This document shows positions 17,388-35,066 of a stretch of DNA of 50,773 nucleotides, piece after piece; position 1 is the first letter of the stretch, and every line of letters begins with the position of its first letter. The DNA is from Candidatus Micrarchaeota archaeon (lineage in GTDB: Archaea > Micrarchaeota > Micrarchaeia > Anstonellales > Bilamarchaeaceae). Position numbers and translations under genes: made by a program. The notes below the pieces were generated by a model that searched no databases, was not told the DNA's origin, and saw only the letters and a list, made by a program, of their open reading frames with translations. The stretch covers positions 1 through 50,773 of the forward strand of contig JBDRPL010000020.1 of the NCBI GenBank assembly GCA_043827025.1. Reading direction: 5' to 3'.

Positions 17388-19592
17388 CTACTCGTTAACT
17401 CCCTTATCCTTAGTAATGAAAACAGGTTGGAATCTGAACTTCAGTCCTGCCAATTCCTTTTCAATCGCTTTCTTGTTGCGCTTGTAGAATGATTTTATTT
17501 GTTCCTTATCTCCCTCAGCAATAGTCATATGTGCCTTGAACGGGAAGTCTGCTTTGTACAGGCTTGCAAGGTATTTCTCAATATCTTTATCTTCAGTTCG
17601 GCCTTTAACAGCATGGAGATTGCCAAGAATTGCAACAATCTTGTTGCTGAACATCTGGATCTTTTTTGATTCCGCTTCCAGTTCAAACTGGTACTTGTCT
17701 TGAAGGATCCGCATGCATTCCTCTTTTGACATTTGCTTTGGAGGCTGAAGGGTCACATGGTACACTTTGTGGGGCTTTGCTGAGCCGTCATAGGGTATCA
17801 GACCTGATTTTTTCACCAGTTCAGTAATGATTTCAAGGTTGGTTTGATCAGTAAGCATCATGGCAAGGAAGCGTCTCTCTGCGCCGCCTTTGAGGTACTC
17901 GCCAAAATTCTCGTGTTTCTTCATGATGAAGGACAAACTATTGCTGTAAGACGTGTTCTTGTATTGCTCGCTTGAGTCTTTCCATTTGGTGCAGCCAGAG
18001 TTGTCTAATATATGAAATATTGCGTCCTTGTCAAACTGATAATAGATCAGTTTTGAAATTAGGCTGGCCTCTGCCTCGCTTCTGCTGGCAAAACCCTCTG
18101 TTGATCCTTGGATAAGCATCTTGAGCTTTCTGTCTTTCTGGCAAATGCGCGCAATCTTTTCTTCAACTGTCAAAGCTTCTGCTGTTTCCAATGGCTGAGT
18201 TTTCAGTGATTTGGAAGCCTTTGCAGCCTCTTCATCTGCTGGTAAAGACAAGATATATTCTTTCAGCTTTGGATCCTCATCTCTTTCAAGCGGCTCAACT
18301 GAATAGGTCATCCGGTGCGGCCTAATTATTGGAGTTTCCCTGCCCTTGATTGATTTGGTTCCAATCAGCTTGATGACTCTTGCCAGGTCTCCGATATTGT
18401 CAATTGAGGCATGGATACCATCAGAATATTTTTCCCGTATGGCTCTGTTGAAGTTCTGAATCTGCACATCTATTCTTTCCCTGTTGACATCTGTAATCTC
18501 TATTGAGGGGATTGCCGTCCATAATTGCCAGCCGTTTCCTGACATGCACTTTACTGGCTTTTTGAAGCCCTTGTCAACAAATTCATCCTTGATGATTATG
18601 TCTGCTTGCTCCTCTGCAAGGTCAAGTTCAGCTTGCGTAGCAGGAAGCTTCTTTCTTTCACTGTCAGGCACGCTTTTGTCAGTCCTGATGGCATCTATAT
18701 CTATCACCAGAGTCTTTGCTGATTTGACATCTATGCCTTTTTTTCCACCAGTGTTCCTTTCATTGATGCCCACATAGAAATTGTAGCCTCTCTTTGACCA
18801 CTGCTCAACCAGGTCATAAAGCTCATCCCTGCTCCTGACAAAGAAGCTCCTTACATATCCTTGCATGTTGGGATTGATGAGCCTGATTTCAGTTTCATTC
18901 TCATGCGCCAGGAACCTGTAGCAGTCGCTGATCATTGAATAATCATAGTAAGGCGAGTTCTGCCTTTCTTTTTGAGAATCCGGCATGCTTTTGCCAGGCA
19001 TGCATTTCAAAACCTCAGAAGCAAAGTCCTGCGGGATTTTCCAGATCTTGATCTGTTTTGGATATCTCACTTCATTATACTTGATGTATTTCTTGTTTTT
19101 CAGAGAAAAAATCATGGTCTTGTATGAATCGATACGAACTGATTTGCTTCCTATCTGCAACACTTTGCCATCGTCTTCTTGCATCTTGTAGGAAACCGAA
19201 ACCTGCTGCAATAGTTCTGCCCGGACAAGAATGATCTGTTCAACAATCTTTTTTGCCATCATCAGCGCCGTGATTTCATCTTTTCCAGTAACTTGGTCTT
19301 GTTTTGCTATTGTTTCGAGGTTTGATGCAAATACATGGATGTCAATTCCTTCTCCTGTGTCTGCAATAATATAAGGAATTCCTGCTTTCCAGAAATATGC
19401 AAGGATTTTCTCAGCCCGTGCAGCAACATCTGTGAGCCATATCCTGCTAAGCTCTTTTTTGTCTTTTGGCTCTTCACTTGGCCTTAGTTTTATGACTATT
19501 TCGCTCTTGAGTATGGGCCGTATGCCCTCTTTGCTCTTGATTTCAGTTCCGCTTGCTGATTTCAGCAGCAATTGCCAATCAGACTGAGTCAT
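17388..19592 (-). CDS. AEP-family primase(-polymerase) with degenerate N-terminal AEP-like region, helical domain and C-terminal 2H phosphoesterase
   Basis: YVGINER, VIDIDA, MSGNGWQ, DLARVIKLIGT; SRSEAE helical motif; RFLAM...YHVTL...AHMTIA. Confidence 0.75.
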   Translation of the reverse strand: MTQSDWQLLLKSASGTEIKSKEGIRPILKSEIVIKLRPSEEPKDKKELSRIWLTDVAARAEKILAYFWKAGIPYIIADTGEGIDIHVFASNLETIAKQDQVTGKDEITALMMAKKIVEQIILVRAELLQQVSVSYKMQEDDGKVLQIGSKSVRIDSYKTMIFSLKNKKYIKYNEVRYPKQIKIWKIPQDFASEVLKCMPGKSMPDSQKERQNSPYYDYSMISDCYRFLAHENETEIRLINPNMQGYVRSFFVRSRDELYDLVEQWSKRGYNFYVGINERNTGGKKGIDVKSAKTLVIDIDAIRTDKSVPDSERKKLPATQAELDLAEEQADIIIKDEFVDKGFKKPVKCMSGNGWQLWTAIPSIEITDVNRERIDVQIQNFNRAIREKYSDGIHASIDNIGDLARVIKLIGTKSIKGRETPIIRPHRMTYSVEPLERDEDPKLKEYILSLPADEEAAKASKSLKTQPLETAEALTVEEKIARICQKDRKLKMLIQGSTEGFASRSEAEASLISKLIYYQFDKDAIFHILDNSGCTKWKDSSEQYKNTSYSNSLSFIMKKHENFGEYLKGGAERRFLAMMLTDQTNLEIITELVKKSGLIPYDGSAKPHKVYHVTLQPPKQMSKEECMRILQDKYQFELEAESKKIQMFSNKIVAILGNLHAVKGRTEDKDIEKYLASLYKADFPFKAHMTIAEGDKEQIKSFYKRNKKAIEKELAGLKFRFQPVFITKDKGVNE

Positions 19593-19646: not shown

Positions 19647-20381
19647 TTACACTGTCCTCTTCAAAAGTTCAAATACTTCCGCTGGTGCCCTGACCATTGG
19701 ATGCAGCCTTGAAACTTCATTGCAGAGGTGGCATACTTCAGAACTCTTCTTTTTCTCTGTTGAGATGAACCGAAACATCCTCTCACAATGCTTGCACACC
19801 CTGAGCTTGAAGACAAACAAGCTTCTTGCAAACTGTATCCTTCTTTTAACAGTGTGCTGATGGATTCCCAGTGATTCTGAAATCTGGGGAAGACTAGCGT
19901 TCATGCAGTACATCAAGAGAAATGCTTTGTTGAAATCATCAAGGTCTTCAATAGGATAGGTTTTGCTGATCCTGGCCAGGTTTCCCGGATGCATTGAGAA
20001 GAGGTTCTTGTATGAGTTGCTTCTCACTTCAACCCCGCACATATGCAACCTTCTTCTTATCTTTTCAGAGCTGCATCCCAATCTGTTGGCGATTTTCAAT
20101 GTGCTTAAGTGGTGGTTGGTGTAGAGCCTGATTACCTGGCTGTTGAAGGTCTCATTCTTTCTGGATATCTTCCCTTTGTTTCTCTTCATTGAATCCGGGA
20201 TTATGAACTTCAGGTGGCGTTTGATGGTTGCCTCAGACACCCTGAAGTAAATGGCCATGTCTTTAATTTTCTGGCCTGAAAGATACCTCTTCCTGAGCTC
20301 ATCAGTATCTAGCATTAGGCGCTTGAATCTTCCCTTTTTTTTAGGGTTGGAATATTCAATGCCTTCAGTATACCATGCCAT
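19647..20381 (-). CDS. Multi-HTH regulator with C-terminal zinc finger
   Basis: Three HTH-like repeats (IKDMAIYFRVSEATIKRHL; TLKIANRLGCSSEKIRRRL; LPQISESLGIHQHTVKRRI); CKHC...CHLC. Confidence 0.75.
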   Translation of the reverse strand: MAWYTEGIEYSNPKKKGRFKRLMLDTDELRKRYLSGQKIKDMAIYFRVSEATIKRHLKFIIPDSMKRNKGKISRKNETFNSQVIRLYTNHHLSTLKIANRLGCSSEKIRRRLHMCGVEVRSNSYKNLFSMHPGNLARISKTYPIEDLDDFNKAFLLMYCMNASLPQISESLGIHQHTVKRRIQFARSLFVFKLRVCKHCERMFRFISTEKKKSSEVCHLCNEVSRLHPMVRAPAEVFELLKRTV

Positions 20382-21273
20382 GAGAGATCATCTCCTCATG
20401 AGTTTCAGCAGCCAGGGGAGCTTCCTGCTTCTTTTCAGCATCAAGGATCAGCTCGACCACTTTCTCAATTTCTGACAGCAAAAGAAGGACAGACCTTTCC
20501 ATGCTCAGGCTTTTCTTGGCTGCATAATACTCAAGATAGTCATAGCAGTTCCTGAGCTTGGCTGTCTTGCCTTCCATGAACGCAAGGGTTGCTGCAACAA
20601 ACTCTGCAACTATCTCGTTTGAAGGATCCTGCCTTTCGTTTCTCATCAGCCCTGTTCTCTGGTGGGCTGCATGTGCCAGCTCATGATAGAACACCAGCTC
20701 TTCCGGCGATGCAAGGACAATCTTCTCATTCCTCTTGTAATACCCGTATGCTGTGCCAAGGAAGGCGCTTGATTTCACCTCAAGCCCCCATGCTTTTGCA
20801 ACATCAATAAAGCGGTGATTTGGCAATGGGATGTTCTCATATGGAAGATCCTTGCCTTCTGTGTCTTCAGCCCTGAAAACCGGCACACCTTTGAACAATA
20901 TGCCTGCTCCAACTCTTGCCGGATCAATTGGTTTGCTGCATTTTGGGCATGTTCCTTTCTCAATATCTTTGTTGTACAGGGATTGGCCGCACTCGCACTG
21001 GTAATAGGAAAACTCTCTTGGCGCAAGTATGTAGATTGCCTTTGTGCCTTTCTTTACCTTCCTTCCTGCCTCTCTCCACTGCTTGATGCCCCTGCCGTCC
21101 ATTGTGCCCTGTATAAGCTGAAGCAGCCTGTTGTTGAGGCTCCACTTGCATGACGGCACATTGAAGCCTGGGTTGGTTGCTAGGGCAATCTTTTCCGGAA
21201 GGCTGCCTTCCCTGAACAAATCAAGTAGCCTGCTAACTGAATCTTTTATTCTCGCATCTTTCATAGAATTCAC
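20365..21273 (-). CDS. ardC: ArdC-like antirestriction protein (ssDNA-binding domain plus zincin domain) with Zn-ribbon insert
   Basis: WSLNNRLL, QWREAGRKVKKGTKAIYILAP, VF...DTEG, HELAH, EIVAE. Confidence 0.8.
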   Translation of the reverse strand: MNSMKDARIKDSVSRLLDLFREGSLPEKIALATNPGFNVPSCKWSLNNRLLQLIQGTMDGRGIKQWREAGRKVKKGTKAIYILAPREFSYYQCECGQSLYNKDIEKGTCPKCSKPIDPARVGAGILFKGVPVFRAEDTEGKDLPYENIPLPNHRFIDVAKAWGLEVKSSAFLGTAYGYYKRNEKIVLASPEELVFYHELAHAAHQRTGLMRNERQDPSNEIVAEFVAATLAFMEGKTAKLRNCYDYLEYYAAKKSLSMERSVLLLLSEIEKVVELILDAEKKQEAPLAAETHEEMISHGMVY

Positions 21274-24712: not shown

Positions 24713-24967
24713 CTAAGAATTTGACTGCGTTCCAGCTAGTGTTCCTGCTTTCCTTTCTCCTTGGGATATTGCCATGATCTGGGATAATGGGATTATGATT
24801 GTCTCTTTAGTGGAATCTTCCTGTTTTGCAGCTTTCTTTGCCAATTCAAACCTGATGAAATCGTCCTCTCTTTTGAGGATCCTGCCGCCTTCCTCATCAG
24901 GCATGCCGTTAACAAAAACCTTGGCACCTGTTTCAATGTACTTGTCAATTAGTTCAATAAGTTTCAT
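24713..24967 (-). CDS. Small hypothetical protein, possibly Sm/Hfq-like beta barrel
   Basis: GRILKREDDFIRF...IIIPLSQIMAI; closely follows the Ubl candidate. Confidence 0.6.
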   Translation of the reverse strand: MKLIELIDKYIETGAKVFVNGMPDEEGGRILKREDDFIRFELAKKAAKQEDSTKETIIIPLSQIMAISQGERKAGTLAGTQSNS

Positions 24968-24973
24968 ATTGCA

Positions 24974-25324
24974 TCATCCTCCTTTGATCTTGTGGGTTGC
25001 TGTGGCGCTGACAACCTTCTCAAACTTCTTGGCGAATGTTTTGACCTGGGAAGCCTGCGGAACTGGCTTAGCCGGCGCAGGACTGCTTTGCCCGTTGCTT
25101 GATGTAGGAGCTGGAGTCTGGAATGTGCTTTTCCAGTCTTCCTTTTTCTCTTCCTGGGGCAAATCTTTCTTTGTTAGGATCTCTGTTGTCCCATCCTTGT
25201 TCTCCAATGTGACCCATTTGTTGTCATTGAGCTGCTTTTCAACCTCTCCCTGCAGCTGGCCTTTTGGCACATCTATCTCATCATGGCCGTTTTTGCTCTC
25301 TATGTAGAGCTTAATTTTTTCCAT
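24974..25324 (-). CDS. Putative ubiquitin-like (beta-grasp) protein ending in Gly-Gly, with low-complexity insert
   Basis: 116 aa from ATG 25324 (GAGGTGA RBS); KIKLYIESKNGHDEIDV beta-hairpin; terminal VVSATATHKIKGG-stop; 1.2 kb downstream of ThiF. Confidence 0.65.
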   Translation of the reverse strand: MEKIKLYIESKNGHDEIDVPKGQLQGEVEKQLNDNKWVTLENKDGTTEILTKKDLPQEEKKEDWKSTFQTPAPTSSNGQSSPAPAKPVPQASQVKTFAKKFEKVVSATATHKIKGG

Positions 25325-25448
25325 GGATATCACCTCGCAATTTTCCTCTATAATTGAGGTTTCTTTCAATGAAAGAAGAAACCGAAATTAGCCTACATTA
25401 TGTTATGAGGACATTACATTTAAATAAATAATAAATTTAATTAGTTGC

Positions 25449-26522
25449 ATGTACTTCAAGGATAATAATAAATCAACCAAAAGCATGTTTTTTGGTGATG
25501 GCTATCTTTTCCATTATTATGAATTTAGCATACTACAGCAATGGCTTGAAGTGGGACAAAGGCTTCAAAAACTTTTTCACCTATATCAAGAAATATCCAT
25601 TCTTTTAGAAGAGGTAGAATCAAAACATGGGCCAATTCTTCAAAAAAAATATGATAAAGCTACCGGATTCACATCGGGAACCGCAAAGCCAATTAAACCC
25701 TTTCTGCAAGAAACTCAAATAAAGTACATAAGCCGATTAATAGAAGAATTGTTTAACAGAGATCTCGATTTAATTGTAAAAGTTGATGTCAGGATAAGAG
25801 AACTGAGACCATTTAAGAACCTAATGGAAAACTTGAAAATTTACAAAGATGGCAATTCTGTATCAAAAGAGAATGTGGAAAAATATTTTGATTATATCAC
25901 ATTAGATTCATTGCAGCATAATCTTTTGGAATTCTGGGATGATGTTAGGAAACTCCTTGATGACAAAACCAATGAGATAGCAATACCTGAACCCAAGATT
26001 GCTAATAGAGAGTTTTATCATTATTTTCTTCAAAGCAGGGATAATTATGTGGAGGGTAATGTTGAAATTGCTTTGGCTATTATAAGAAAAGCTGTCGAAG
26101 ACATCCTAACGAGATTTTGGATTCTGCATTTTGAAAAACTAAATGAAATAGATTTGAAAAAAAGACCTGAACTTGATAACCTACCTGGATTTTTAAGGAG
26201 CAAGGGTACATTGGATGACCAGGAAGTAAGGGAAGCAATGCCTTTTATTAAGTACGGCAATGCAGGGATTCATGTTTTGGGGGAAATACCAAGTGAAAAA
26301 ATATCGTCTAATGCAAAAAGGATGATTAACAATGGCATCAGCTTCGTTGATGGCATGTCAGAGAAATACATAGAAAAAATGAGATTAAAAAAGTACTGCA
26401 ATATTGAATTCACAAAGACTGGTTTCTCAATTAGATGTGGGAATATAGAGCAGTACATATGCAAACAAACTGCAGAAGACACTTTCCACAAAGATGACAT
26501 TAAGGAGTTTGAGCAGAAATAA
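25449..26522 (+). CDS. DUF4145/HEPN-like domain protein, opposite strand to the surrounding array
   Basis: ALAIIRKAVEDIL...KYGNAGIH; AT-rich. Confidence 0.65.
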   Translation: MYFKDNNKSTKSMFFGDGYLFHYYEFSILQQWLEVGQRLQKLFHLYQEISILLEEVESKHGPILQKKYDKATGFTSGTAKPIKPFLQETQIKYISRLIEELFNRDLDLIVKVDVRIRELRPFKNLMENLKIYKDGNSVSKENVEKYFDYITLDSLQHNLLEFWDDVRKLLDDKTNEIAIPEPKIANREFYHYFLQSRDNYVEGNVEIALAIIRKAVEDILTRFWILHFEKLNEIDLKKRPELDNLPGFLRSKGTLDDQEVREAMPFIKYGNAGIHVLGEIPSEKISSNAKRMINNGISFVDGMSEKYIEKMRLKKYCNIEFTKTGFSIRCGNIEQYICKQTAEDTFHKDDIKEFEQK

Positions 26523-32473: not shown

Positions 32474-32773
32474 TCATGCCTTTGCAGGCATGGGGTTTTT
32501 AATGAGCATCTTATTATCTCTTGCAAGCTCAAACAGAAAATCTTCAACATCTATGCTTCTTGACATCTCTGAAGCCTCAACCCTTAAAGCTATCTCGTAA
32601 AGGTCATGGTAGATTATGCCTTTCTCCTCTTCCTGTAGGTTAAGGAACCATCCATACTCTGAGAGCACTTTTTCAAAATCTTCTTCAAGGTCTGCTGTGT
32701 CAAACAGAAGCTCACCGCAACGCTTGATGTGCTCTACTACCTTGTGGCATAGCCAATGGTTTGCTTCACTCAT
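32474..32773 (-). CDS. Hypothetical acidic protein (99 aa)
   Basis: AGGTGA RBS before ATG 32773; overlaps upstream gene. Confidence 0.7.
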   Translation of the reverse strand: MSEANHWLCHKVVEHIKRCGELLFDTADLEEDFEKVLSEYGWFLNLQEEEKGIIYHDLYEIALRVEASEMSRSIDVEDFLFELARDNKMLIKNPMPAKA

Positions 32774-33116
32774 CTTGCTCACCTTCAAAAGAAGAAGATG
32801 CTTCTTCTTCAGAAGCACCGTCTATTATCTCGTTGAGCAAATCTCTCAACTCTATCAGCTCATCTGATTTGTTGCACCAAATCTGCTGGTTGTTCCATGT
32901 GTCTTTATGCTTGCTGTATGTGCTGTACTGGATGCACGTCCTGATTCTGTTGAATGAGATTTCTGGTATGAAATCCCTCATGCTCTCATCTGCTGGCAAC
33001 TTGACCATGTTCATCTTCATGACTGTCACCTGAAACCTGCCTTCGCGTGCCTTGTTTACTATCTCTGCACTACCTATCTGCTTCAGTTCATATTCTACTT
33101 TTTGCTTTTGTTTCAT
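32766..33116 (-). CDS. Hypothetical protein, first gene downstream of the structured element; acidic tail
   Basis: GAGGT RBS; IQYSTYSKHKDTWNNQQIWC..DELIELRDLL weakly PC4-like. Confidence 0.7.
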   Translation of the reverse strand: MKQKQKVEYELKQIGSAEIVNKAREGRFQVTVMKMNMVKLPADESMRDFIPEISFNRIRTCIQYSTYSKHKDTWNNQQIWCNKSDELIELRDLLNEIIDGASEEEASSSFEGEQDE

Positions 33117-33225
33117 TTTATTTACCTCTTGAAACCTTCATCTAGCCGTGAAGATTTCTTTTCTTCACCCTGAATAGAAAAGAAATCAAACAGAAACGAA
33201 AGGAGTCTGCGAGAAAAAGAAGCGG

Positions 33226-33459
33226 GAAGTACCTTGACACTCGAGCAAATCCTTCTTTTAATGGTTTAGCCAAGAGCGACCCTGCAAGGGGAAACCTTTA
33301 AAATGGAAGGTTTGCGTGTGCCAAGGAGTATTCAAGCCACTATTCTAGGCGTTTAGGCGACCATCCCGATGGATGGGAAAGATTTAAAATAAGGGGTTTG
33401 CGTATTAAGTCCAGCGAACCCCTTTTTAAAGCTTTAGCCGTGCAGAACGCCACTAGAAT
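33226..33459 (+). other. Large two-domain branched stem-loop element (ssDNA promoter/ssi or ncRNA candidate)
   Basis: Long imperfect inverted repeats 33232-33261/33298-33326, 33342-33354/33445-33459, 33383-33401/33414-33430, with inner hairpins. Confidence 0.75.
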
Positions 33460-33521
33460 TTGTTAATTTCAATTGTACATTTGCAAAGATTTTATTAAGT
33501 TGGCATAATAATAAAAATACA

Positions 33522-33878
33522 ATGAACTCAGATATCGCTGAGAGATACATAGGCTGTTGCGGTGCTTATTGTAAAACGTGCAAAGTATTTATTGAAGGAG
33601 TCTGCAAGGGCTGCAAATTAGGATATATTGAAGGAAAAAGGGACATTGGCAAAGCCAAATGCATTATGAAGATATGCTGTTTCAAAGAAAAGAAAATGGA
33701 AACTTGCGCTGATTGCCCTAAGTGTCCTGATTGCAATATCATTCACAATTTTTATAGCAAACGCGGATTCAAATACAAAAAATACAAGCAGGCTATTGAA
33801 TTCATCAAAAAAAACGGATATTCCAAGTTTGTCAAATTAGCTGATGAGTGGAATGGCCCTTATGGCAAACTGGAATAA
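33522..33878 (+). CDS. DUF3795-like Cys-rich protein
   Basis: GCCGAYCKTC...CKGC...C.MKICC...TCADC...C. Confidence 0.85.
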   Translation: MNSDIAERYIGCCGAYCKTCKVFIEGVCKGCKLGYIEGKRDIGKAKCIMKICCFKEKKMETCADCPKCPDCNIIHNFYSKRGFKYKKYKQAIEFIKKNGYSKFVKLADEWNGPYGKLE

Positions 33879-33974
33879 TCAACCATCCTTGCCTTTTCCT
33901 GAAGGGAAATATGCGAAGCATTTTTCATGCAACAAGAGAGGCATGATTTGAAAAATGATGCCGAACGGATTCAG

Positions 33975-34103
33975 TTATTCCATGCTGAAAAGGGCTTCCT
34001 CTTCAGAAGCCTTGCTCTTGCTGGCATTGTATTCCAAGTGGTACACTGTTTCATACAAGCACGCATTGCATATAACACCTAAGATATTGCAGACATTGCA
34101 CAT
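33975..34103 (-). CDS. Small 42-aa Cys-rich (CxxC...CxxC) protein, not in ORF track
   Basis: MCNVCNILGVICNACLYETVYHLEYNASKSKASEEEALFSME; GGAGG RBS. Confidence 0.55.
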   Translation of the reverse strand: MCNVCNILGVICNACLYETVYHLEYNASKSKASEEEALFSME

Positions 34104-34436
34104 TTTAAACTGCCTCCGGGCATTGCGCCCATGAGCGAGCTTGGTGCGGGCTCTGTAAGTGATTTTCGCGTTTTCATATTCCTTCTTCTCATCTTGTCAA
34201 AACATCTGCATTCAGCCTTTATTCAAAAGCAAGAAATAATGGGGAAACCGAAAATTACAATTAGGAGCCACGGTCGCTTCTTTTTGGGCGCTTGGCTGGA
34301 GGCTGAAAATGATGCATTGCCAATTCTTTGGTGATGTGCAGAAGGTGCTTGTGAAACAGTGGATACTGGAAAATGCCTGCATTAGCTGGCTTTCCTGAAG
34401 GGATGCCCCTTCACTTTTCATCAGAACAAATGTTTT

Positions 34437-35066
34437 TTAGATGAAATTGCACATTGAAGAAGAAGATTCAGAAAGGTCATGGAATTCCGGTTTGCCCTTT
34501 TCTTTCTCAAATTCCTGCCTTAATATGCTGTATCTGACAAGATCCTTCCATTTCCTTTTTTTCAAATAAGCCTGCCTGCTTCTGCCTTCATAGACAAACC
34601 CGGATTTCTCAAGAACCCGCTGGGATGCTATGTTCCCATAGAAATGATCTGCTGCTATCCTATGCAACCGAAGCTTCCTGAAAGCAAATTTCAAAACAAG
34701 TTCTACGCATTCAGTCATGTAGCCTTGGTTCCTGTACTTGGCTCCAATCCAGTAGCCTATTGTTCCAGCCTTGTGCTTTTTGCTTTCTATGAAAAGGCTG
34801 ATCACTCCAACTGCTTCCTTGCCAGGCCTTGGAACTATCCCAAAAACATACCCTCTGCCGTATCTTGCTCTAGAATATGATCTCTGAATCAGCTTTTCTG
34901 CATTGCTTTTCTTGTAGGGAAATGAGATGCTTCCCAACCACATGGAAACATCCTTGTCATTCGCATTCTTTGCAATCGAATCCCTGTCAATCTGCTTTAG
35001 ATGCCTTAACACAACCCGCTTGCTTTTCAATAAAAAATATTTCTGCTTCATGTAACTTTTCAGCAC
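34437..35066 (-). CDS. GNAT N-acetyltransferase, RimJ/RimL family
   Basis: IGYWIGAKYRNQGYMTE, NIASQRVLEKSGFVYEG. Confidence 0.92.
   Translation of the reverse strand: MLKSYMKQKYFLLKSKRVVLRHLKQIDRDSIAKNANDKDVSMWLGSISFPYKKSNAEKLIQRSYSRARYGRGYVFGIVPRPGKEAVGVISLFIESKKHKAGTIGYWIGAKYRNQGYMTECVELVLKFAFRKLRLHRIAADHFYGNIASQRVLEKSGFVYEGRSRQAYLKKRKWKDLVRYSILRQEFEKEKGKPEFHDLSESSSSMCNFI

Follow-up and report, generated by a model that had tools for sequence, protein, structure and literature searches.

Masai and Arai 1997 is cited as a reference for the Frpo and ssi promoters, which act on single-stranded DNA. The ssoA-type, RNA-polymerase-dependent single-strand origins of rolling-circle plasmids are large, imperfect, non-coding hairpins with a promoter-like stem that give a short primer RNA. 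In Frpo of F, the -35 and -10 elements lie within a stem-loop of the single strand (PMC11541004, PMC9849209); Frpo often directly precedes ssb in bacteria (PMC11541004), and F's Frpo is inactive once the DNA is double-stranded (PMC9849209). Both the launching of genes and the priming of the second strand are reported for Frpo. In p576, four promoters of putative establishment genes are repressed by Reg576 and are not ssDNA promoters (PMC6294495). Full-text literature searches found no archaeal single-strand promoter in print. The locus described here bears on whether archaeal conjugative and integrative elements enter as a single or a double strand, and on how their first genes are then switched on.

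We analysed a non-coding element of 234 nt (33226-33459) inside the 405-nt gap (33117-33521) that separates two divergent genes, P0001 on the left (minus strand, 32766-33116, 116 aa) and the Cys-rich P0002 on the right (plus strand, 33522-33878, 118 aa). The window, by which we mean the whole stretch of 50,773 nt that was analysed, is one entire contig of a 1.33-Mb genome that is 92% complete. P0001 is the first gene of a minus-strand array that runs from 33116 to 17388 (~16 kb); the initial annotation had described minus-strand genes from 33116 toward 17.4 kb, and this is correct except for two plus-strand ORFs at 24774-26522, the only break in the array. The gene content of the contig resembles that of an integrated element of the conjugation type. 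It encodes a tyrosine integrase, ParA, a defence island, two large HerA/VirB4-like ATPases, a Fic protein, a ThiF-type E1, a HIRAN protein and an OB-fold SSB-like protein, and HTH proteins are among the array products. Another array product, a 302-aa protein (20365-21273, minus strand), matches the phage anti-restriction family phrog_7245 (PHROG, E 1.6e-6), which fits an establishment or anti-defence role of the array. The last array gene (17388-19592, minus strand, 734 aa) has no Pfam match, and its neighbours in a protein atlas (scores 0.80-0.83) belong to clusters of archaeo-eukaryotic primases, RepB-primases and D5/DnaB/VapE-type helicases, a lead towards a primase-helicase of the element. 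No relaxase, origin of transfer or other mark of single-strand transfer was recognised on the contig, and no Orc1/Cdc6 or Rep family was detected there.

The element shares a number of features with Frpo and ssi (PMC11541004, PMC9849209). Each is a non-coding stem-loop of at least 100 nt that stands before the first genes of a unidirectional array on an element of the transfer type; the stem contains the core promoter elements, and some bases close to the melting region are unpaired. Frpo, too, can occur in more than one copy (Frpo1, Frpo2), and a single-strand-binding gene often follows it. The element differs from them in that its boxes are archaeal BRE/TATA rather than -35/-10 elements, with no sequence match among plasmid records, in that it is nearly strand-symmetric and its second copy is a circular permutation whose start-site end is closed, and in that no sign of single-strand transfer was recognised on its host element; in addition its boxes look like complete duplex promoters, whereas Frpo is off when double-stranded (PMC9849209). 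Since no sequence match links it to Frpo or ssi, its type of promoter is another, and strand specificity and duplex inactivity would be hypothetical for it, we would not class the element as a member of the Frpo/ssi family; at best it works like one. The likeness to the ssoA-type origins is the primer-hairpin role, which is the role that the second fold-back (unit B) may have; the differences are that neither a rolling-circle Rep nor a double-strand origin was recognised here and that archaeal primases need no promoter.

Promoter boxes and fold-backs of the element

The rule by which promoters were recognised was derived from the genome's own upstream regions, using crude gene calls. TATA-like hexamers in 1133 upstream regions form a sharp peak 29 nt before the ATG, so most genes of this genome are apparently leaderless, and alignment of 222 leaderless-type upstream regions gave the consensus AAA-NN-TTTAAA, in which an A-rich BRE lies two bases upstream of the TATA element. 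One 27-29-nt box, repeated four times with two copies per strand, makes up the main helices of the element, and each fold-back pairs one plus-strand box (alpha) with one minus-strand box (beta; Table 1). The pattern common to the boxes is G-G-x-x-AAA, two bases, TTTAAAA, four to five bases, and GG(T)TTYGC. The TTTAAAA and GGTTTGC boxes noticed earlier in the two long stems are real, and within the window they are confined to the element; the heptamer GG(T)TTYGC has the same position in all four boxes, between the TATA element and the predicted start, and is found upstream of no other gene in the window.

Table 1. Positions of the boxes, fold-backs and adjoining features in the window
Feature	Positions	Strand	Description
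Box beta1	33245-33271	-	BRE/TATA-like, directed towards 32766-33116; predicted start ~33232
Box alpha2	33289-33317	+	consensus BRE/TATA GAAACC-TTTAAAAT, then GGTTTGCGT; direct repeat D1; predicted start ~33326
Box alpha3	33375-33403	+	consensus; 86 nt beyond alpha2; predicted start ~33412, inside the unit B loop
Box beta4	33413-33440	-	consensus, facing alpha3; predicted start ~33401, on the closing pair of the unit B loop
Unit A	33232-33326	both	fold-back with 33 checked pairs: outer stem, then P1 (TATA duplex), P2 (BRE duplex) and hairpin P3
P3 of unit A	33280-33290	both	CCCT-GCA-AGGG, flanked by GCGA and G; 1 base upstream of the alpha2 BRE
Unit B	33342-33459	both	three-way fold-back of 118 nt with 42 pairs
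P3 of unit B	33361-33376	both	CCATCC-CGAT-GGATGG; GCGA and G flanks as in P3 of unit A; sequence differs, pairing kept
P0002 with its own promoter	33483-33878	+	leaderless-type box AAAGA-TTTTATTAA, ~31 nt before the ATG
Perfect 12-bp hairpin	33153-33187	-	inverted repeat I3; in the predicted 5' leader of P0001

Boxes alpha2, alpha3 and beta4 match the canonical archaeal BRE/TATA consensus exactly, as duplex promoters would, and only beta1, which faces the array, is degenerate; it is a near fit that departs from the consensus by a 3-nt spacer or, equivalently, by an A at the first TATA position. All four start sites are predictions. Hairpin A accordingly has a consensus box on the plus strand (alpha2, its 3' arm there) and a degenerate box on the minus strand. 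Promoter-like sites are rare in this genome, with 190 on both strands of its 1.33 Mb, so that ~0.03 are expected per 234 nt and three or four are observed. Seven pairs of inverted look-alike boxes were listed and, trivial A/T-only palindromes on C4 and C19 aside, they occur at this locus alone, alpha2/beta4 being a third such pair from the element. Hairpins adjoining the BRE are no general trait of the genome: they accompany nine of the 190 promoter-like sites, compared with 100 of 3000 random positions, and the P3 hairpins of units A and B account for two of the nine. By the 29-nt rule the predicted starts of beta1 (33232) and alpha2 (33326) fall on the two terminal pairs of hairpin A, and the 4x2 internal loop of this unit falls at -10/-9.

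Both of the adjacent folded domains that the initial annotation had drawn are present, each stem it named was found, and the helices were verified base by base. The outer stem of unit A has 5+3 bp with one A-C mismatch and ends at the 4x2 internal loop; P1 follows with 5+5+6 bp, then a T-T mismatch, P2 with 5 bp, a 12-nt bulge (AGCC AAGA GCGA) and finally the 4-bp hairpin P3. Unit B has an outer stem of 7+5 bp, a GGC/GCC helix of 3 bp, the 6-bp hairpin P3, and an arm in which P2 (4 bp) and P1 (7+10 bp) are capped by a 12-nt loop. The 12-bp outer stem of unit B is unrelated to the promoter boxes.

Folding of both strands of 33226-33459, with RNA and with DNA parameters, gave z-scores of -4.09 (plus) and -4.95 (minus) for RNA and of -5.94 (plus) and -5.58 (minus) for DNA, and in none of the four cases did any of 200 shuffled sequences fold as well. 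These scores exclude a chance palindrome. The element has about twice as much structure per base (-0.215 kcal/mol/nt) as 11 other intergenic regions of the mobile element (-0.059 to -0.106), and a 240-nt sliding scan of the window places it second for the plus strand. With DNA parameters unit A folds at -21.5 kcal/mol on either strand (z -4.38 and -4.74), and unit B at -28.9 kcal/mol on the plus strand (z -6.56) versus -24.4 on the minus strand (z -4.65), so that the plus strand is favoured by 4.5 kcal/mol; with RNA parameters the corresponding values for unit B are -44.7 and -37.2 kcal/mol, a difference of 7.5. The argument that several mismatches are G-T pairs on the plus strand fails, as the checked helices have one plus-strand G-T pair (T33399-G33416) and one minus-strand G-T pair (A33237-C33321 on the plus strand), that is one per strand. 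What is left is a weak polarity towards the array's template strand, the plus strand: unit B is more stable on it, and it carries the consensus box of hairpin A.

The two units share a core that consists of the alpha/beta box duplex, a small hairpin and a strand A-GCC. In both, the hairpin stands 1 base upstream of the alpha BRE between GCGA and G, and the unpaired GCGA, G and A-GCC are identical in the two units. Their connectivity is circularly permuted: in unit A the strands exit at the start-site end of the box duplex, and in unit B a loop caps this end, the exit being through an extra stem between GCC and GCGA. Two-sided differences between A and B affect three pairs of P1, one of P2 and one of P3, which makes at least five compensatory changes, and P3 differs in addition by two added matching pairs. 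These compensatory differences, which come from one paralogous comparison, and the stems outside the boxes suggest that intrastrand pairing is under selection; homogenisation of the palindrome arms could also yield compensatory changes between A and B. The locus is compact and fully specified, with four boxes of which three are exact consensus, two connectivities of one core, and predicted starts at defined bases.

Flanking genes and searches for relatives

P0001 has a Shine-Dalgarno sequence (GAGGT) and is leadered. Its family has the invariant motifs GRFQ, CxQYS and NQQIW and an acidic, Ser-rich tail, and matched no Pfam family. An AlphaFold model built from nine sequences (mean pLDDT 82) comprises four long strands, one helix and, after these, the disordered acidic tail. 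A Foldseek search with P0001 gave no clear match; in a wider structural alignment Borrelia and Drosophila Pur-alpha came out on top (Z 6.1, 6.0 and 5.1) and PC4 gave Z 4.3, all below 8 and so too low for a safe match of folds, and neither sequence nor profile comparison supported the Pur-alpha/PC4 likeness. We take the predicted fold as a lead that P0001 might bind single-stranded nucleic acid. Eight close homologues of P0001 (52-76% identity) are on Logan, ENA or NCBI contigs; none was found in 98 genomes of the family, in plasmids or in phages, and samples of 400 genomes each from the phylum and from a Woesearchaeota-type phylum gave one weak, broken match and one weak match, respectively. 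Five loci (L116-L120, four from metagenomes and one from IMG/VR) have distant homologues, and upstream of these the box motif and the promoter hairpin are absent.

P0001 and these distant relatives have long structured leaders, those of the relatives being longer than 100 nt. At four of the distant loci (L117:1-201, L118:2493-2892, L119:2410-2809 and L120:259-658) a hairpin stands right before the start codon with the Shine-Dalgarno sequence within its 3' arm (GGAGGTGG), and its stem sequences vary from locus to locus. To judge from these sequences, this hairpin looks like a conserved translation-control leader of the P0001 family; the P0001 leader in the window has the perfect 12-bp hairpin in place of it. 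Farther upstream, ~130-180 nt before the gene, L117 and L118 (L117:18-60, L118:2700-2790) share motifs with one another, as do L119 and L120. One of these pairs has CCATATAAG and then a short GGAAAGG hairpin and the other has GGATTACGGGCA; they are probably promoters and operators unrelated to the four boxes.

The promoter of its own that precedes P0002 suggests that this gene is expressed independently of the element. Homologues of P0002 were found in two of 98 family genomes (62-65% identity), one of them adjoining a tRNA gene, and no unit-B-like sequence lies upstream of them. P0002 looks like a gene of the host lineage carried as cargo, which also backs the binning of the contig.

Relatives of the element itself were sought widely. 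In its own genome BLAST and a pattern search found the locus itself only. Among 40 relatives the best BLAST match (E 0.004 over 24 nt) was judged to be chance, and in 400 genomes of the phylum a pattern with up to 2 mismatches gave three matches compared with two for a control pattern. The exact pattern hit 95 loci in the GTDB species set, all without the flanking features and many of them in coding sequence, and two patterns gave four and three loci in IMG/VR, all attributable to chance. Comparison by blastn with 72,556 plasmid records, a set expected to include F-like plasmids, gave no match, and phages likewise gave none. Two metatranscriptome runs from the source study yielded no alignments over 32700-34500, a result that does not bear on whether the locus is expressed. 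Two proteins of the element used as handles, a 710-aa protein in IMG/VR and the primase-helicase-like protein in 60 relatives, led to no related locus. The known RNA family or MITE that the initial annotation had allowed for did not turn up: Rfam 15 has no match in the window at the gathering threshold and nothing meaningful up to E 10 (the best sub-threshold E-values are 1.2-9.7, to unrelated families), and the element is single-copy in its genome with no copies in the sets searched. The case rests on one locus, and is weakened by the fact that homologues were not found in the genome, virus and plasmid sets searched.

Competing explanations and a neighbouring hairpin

The geometry that an archaeal analogue of Frpo would require is present in silico (pair tables, DNA folds and promoter consensus), and by it a single strand could likely rebuild a working promoter, as single strands of bacterial conjugative plasmids do. 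The most probable of the readings considered, though no more than possible, is by analogy with Frpo that the element is a DNA fold-back promoter able to work on single-stranded DNA. On a single-stranded plus strand, the folding of hairpin A would restore a BRE/TATA duplex in which alpha2 is the non-template arm and a small loop stays open near -10; TBP, TFB and RNA polymerase would then initiate at the base of the hairpin (~33232) and transcribe the plus strand to the left, into the 16-kb array. Unit B, in which a loop closes the same core over -10 to +2, would give a short RNA only, for example a primer for second-strand synthesis. When the DNA is double-stranded, the array would ordinarily be transcribed from the weaker beta1, a role that is plausible for it because P0001 has a Shine-Dalgarno sequence, no TATA-like site lies nearer to the gene than beta1, and the leaders of the distant relatives exceed 100 nt.

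Of the TBP/TFB-dependent Frpo analogue that the initial annotation had proposed, what stands is that the stem boxes match the genome consensus, that the stems reach the predicted starts and that the element heads a mostly unidirectional array; the G-T argument is lost, and the boxes look complete as duplex promoters. A fold-back promoter is the only reading that uses both the promoter identity of the boxes and the selection for pairing. The rarity of such boxes by the genome's own consensus, the A/B differences that keep pairing, the outer stem of unit B outside the boxes, the coincidence of predicted starts and internal loop with the geometry of hairpin A, and the weak plus-strand polarity all agree with it. 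So does the context, a minus-strand array on a contig with integrase, ParA, HerA/VirB4-like ATPases and SSB-like, anti-restriction-like and, as a lead, primase-helicase-like genes, as well as the predicted Pur-alpha/PC4-like fold of P0001, which would recall the position of bacterial Frpo just ahead of ssb. Against it are the lack of a recognised relaxase or origin of transfer on the element, the near-symmetry of a structure whose unit A folds equally on both strands, three boxes that match the promoter consensus perfectly in the duplex too and so do not demand a single strand, and the layout of unit B, which would make the polymerase travel back across the promoter duplex it had started from; the compensatory changes come from one paralogous comparison open to arm homogenisation, no homologous element was found in the sets searched, and the Pur-alpha likeness is weak. 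To our knowledge, single-strand entry is not known for archaeal conjugative elements. That the two fold-backs jointly form an archaeal ssDNA promoter system read by TBP/TFB, the open one launching the establishment operon from the incoming strand and the closed, permuted copy making the second-strand primer, we regard as doubtful; if true, a DPANN-borne element would enter cells as a single strand, like bacterial conjugative plasmids.

Of nearly equal likelihood to the fold-back promoter, and likewise no more than possible, is that the boxes are ordinary double-stranded promoters and that alpha2 drives a ~135-nt structured plus-strand RNA containing unit B (33326 to ~33470). Transcripts of the array would then start from beta4 with a long leader or from beta1 with a short one, and the plus-strand RNA, complementary to the initial ~75 nt of the long leader, would tune the array as plasmid antisense RNAs do. 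The structured ncRNA named as an alternative in the initial annotation thus remains, for unit B, about as likely as a single-strand promoter. It is consistent with the consensus promoter alpha2 standing 16 nt before the outer stem of unit B, with a fold of unit B that is both more stable and more exceptional on the plus strand, with the T-rich run after unit B and no ORF of more than 7 codons within it, with the good folding of both strands that is expected of sense/antisense pairs, and with the long structured leaders of P0001 and its distant relatives. Such an RNA would leave unexplained why two facing consensus promoters 12 nt apart form the arms of the main helix, and why unit A, which neither alpha2 nor beta1 would transcribe, has retained core and junction bases in common with unit B on the same strand. 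The RNA would also contain a run of five T (33423-33427), and a T run would tend to stop archaeal transcription; its loops (GCA, CGAT and a 12-mer) include no GNRA or UNCG, and no Rfam family matched. If unit B is an RNA instead, it would be an unclassified structured RNA controlling a 16-kb accessory operon.

A further, unlikely explanation is a purely double-stranded control region, with GG(T)TTYGC as the operator of an element-encoded repressor and an array that fires briefly on entering a repressor-free cell, a mode shown for the establishment genes of p576. The equal placement of the heptamer in four boxes and the HTH proteins encoded in the array speak for it, and p576 offers a precedent in its Reg576-repressed promoters: a short operator motif is common to several similar promoters that precede anti-restriction and other establishment genes, the difference being that those are separate promoters for different genes with no fold-back and here four boxes form paired arms in one intergenic region (PMC6294495). 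An operator would explain neither the 12-bp outer stem of unit B, nor two P3 palindromes that differ and both pair, nor the pair-wise compensatory differences between A and B, and the heptamer precedes no other gene in the window. We think it rather improbable that the element is instead a replication origin, a transfer origin or another site of the excised element, at which an initiator would bind the inverted boxes, A/T tracts would melt and the primase-helicase-like protein would be loaded. Four iteron-like boxes in inverted pairs beside a visibly A/T-rich stretch (33460-33521) and the primase-helicase-like gene, itself a lead, would fit such a site, and stem-loop origins occur in small archaeal plasmids; the gene that might serve replication lies at a distance of 14 kb, neither Orc1/Cdc6 nor a Rep family was detected, and promoters are the simpler account of the boxes. 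By far the least probable explanation is a miniature transposon, decayed repeat or functionless chance palindrome: unit B does have terminal inverted repeats in 118 nt, but the element is single-copy in its own genome and was not found in the 40 relatives, the GTDB species set, IMG/VR, plasmids and phages, the phylum sample hardly exceeded its control, and the fold z-scores exclude chance.

The window has a second large, imperfect hairpin at 34067-34340, between the 3' ends of P0002 and a GNAT gene. It has no consensus promoter box inside and, two short weak matches apart, is single-copy in the genome. In the sliding scan it is the strongest outlier on the plus strand, with an RNA fold of -99.4 kcal/mol (z -5.08).
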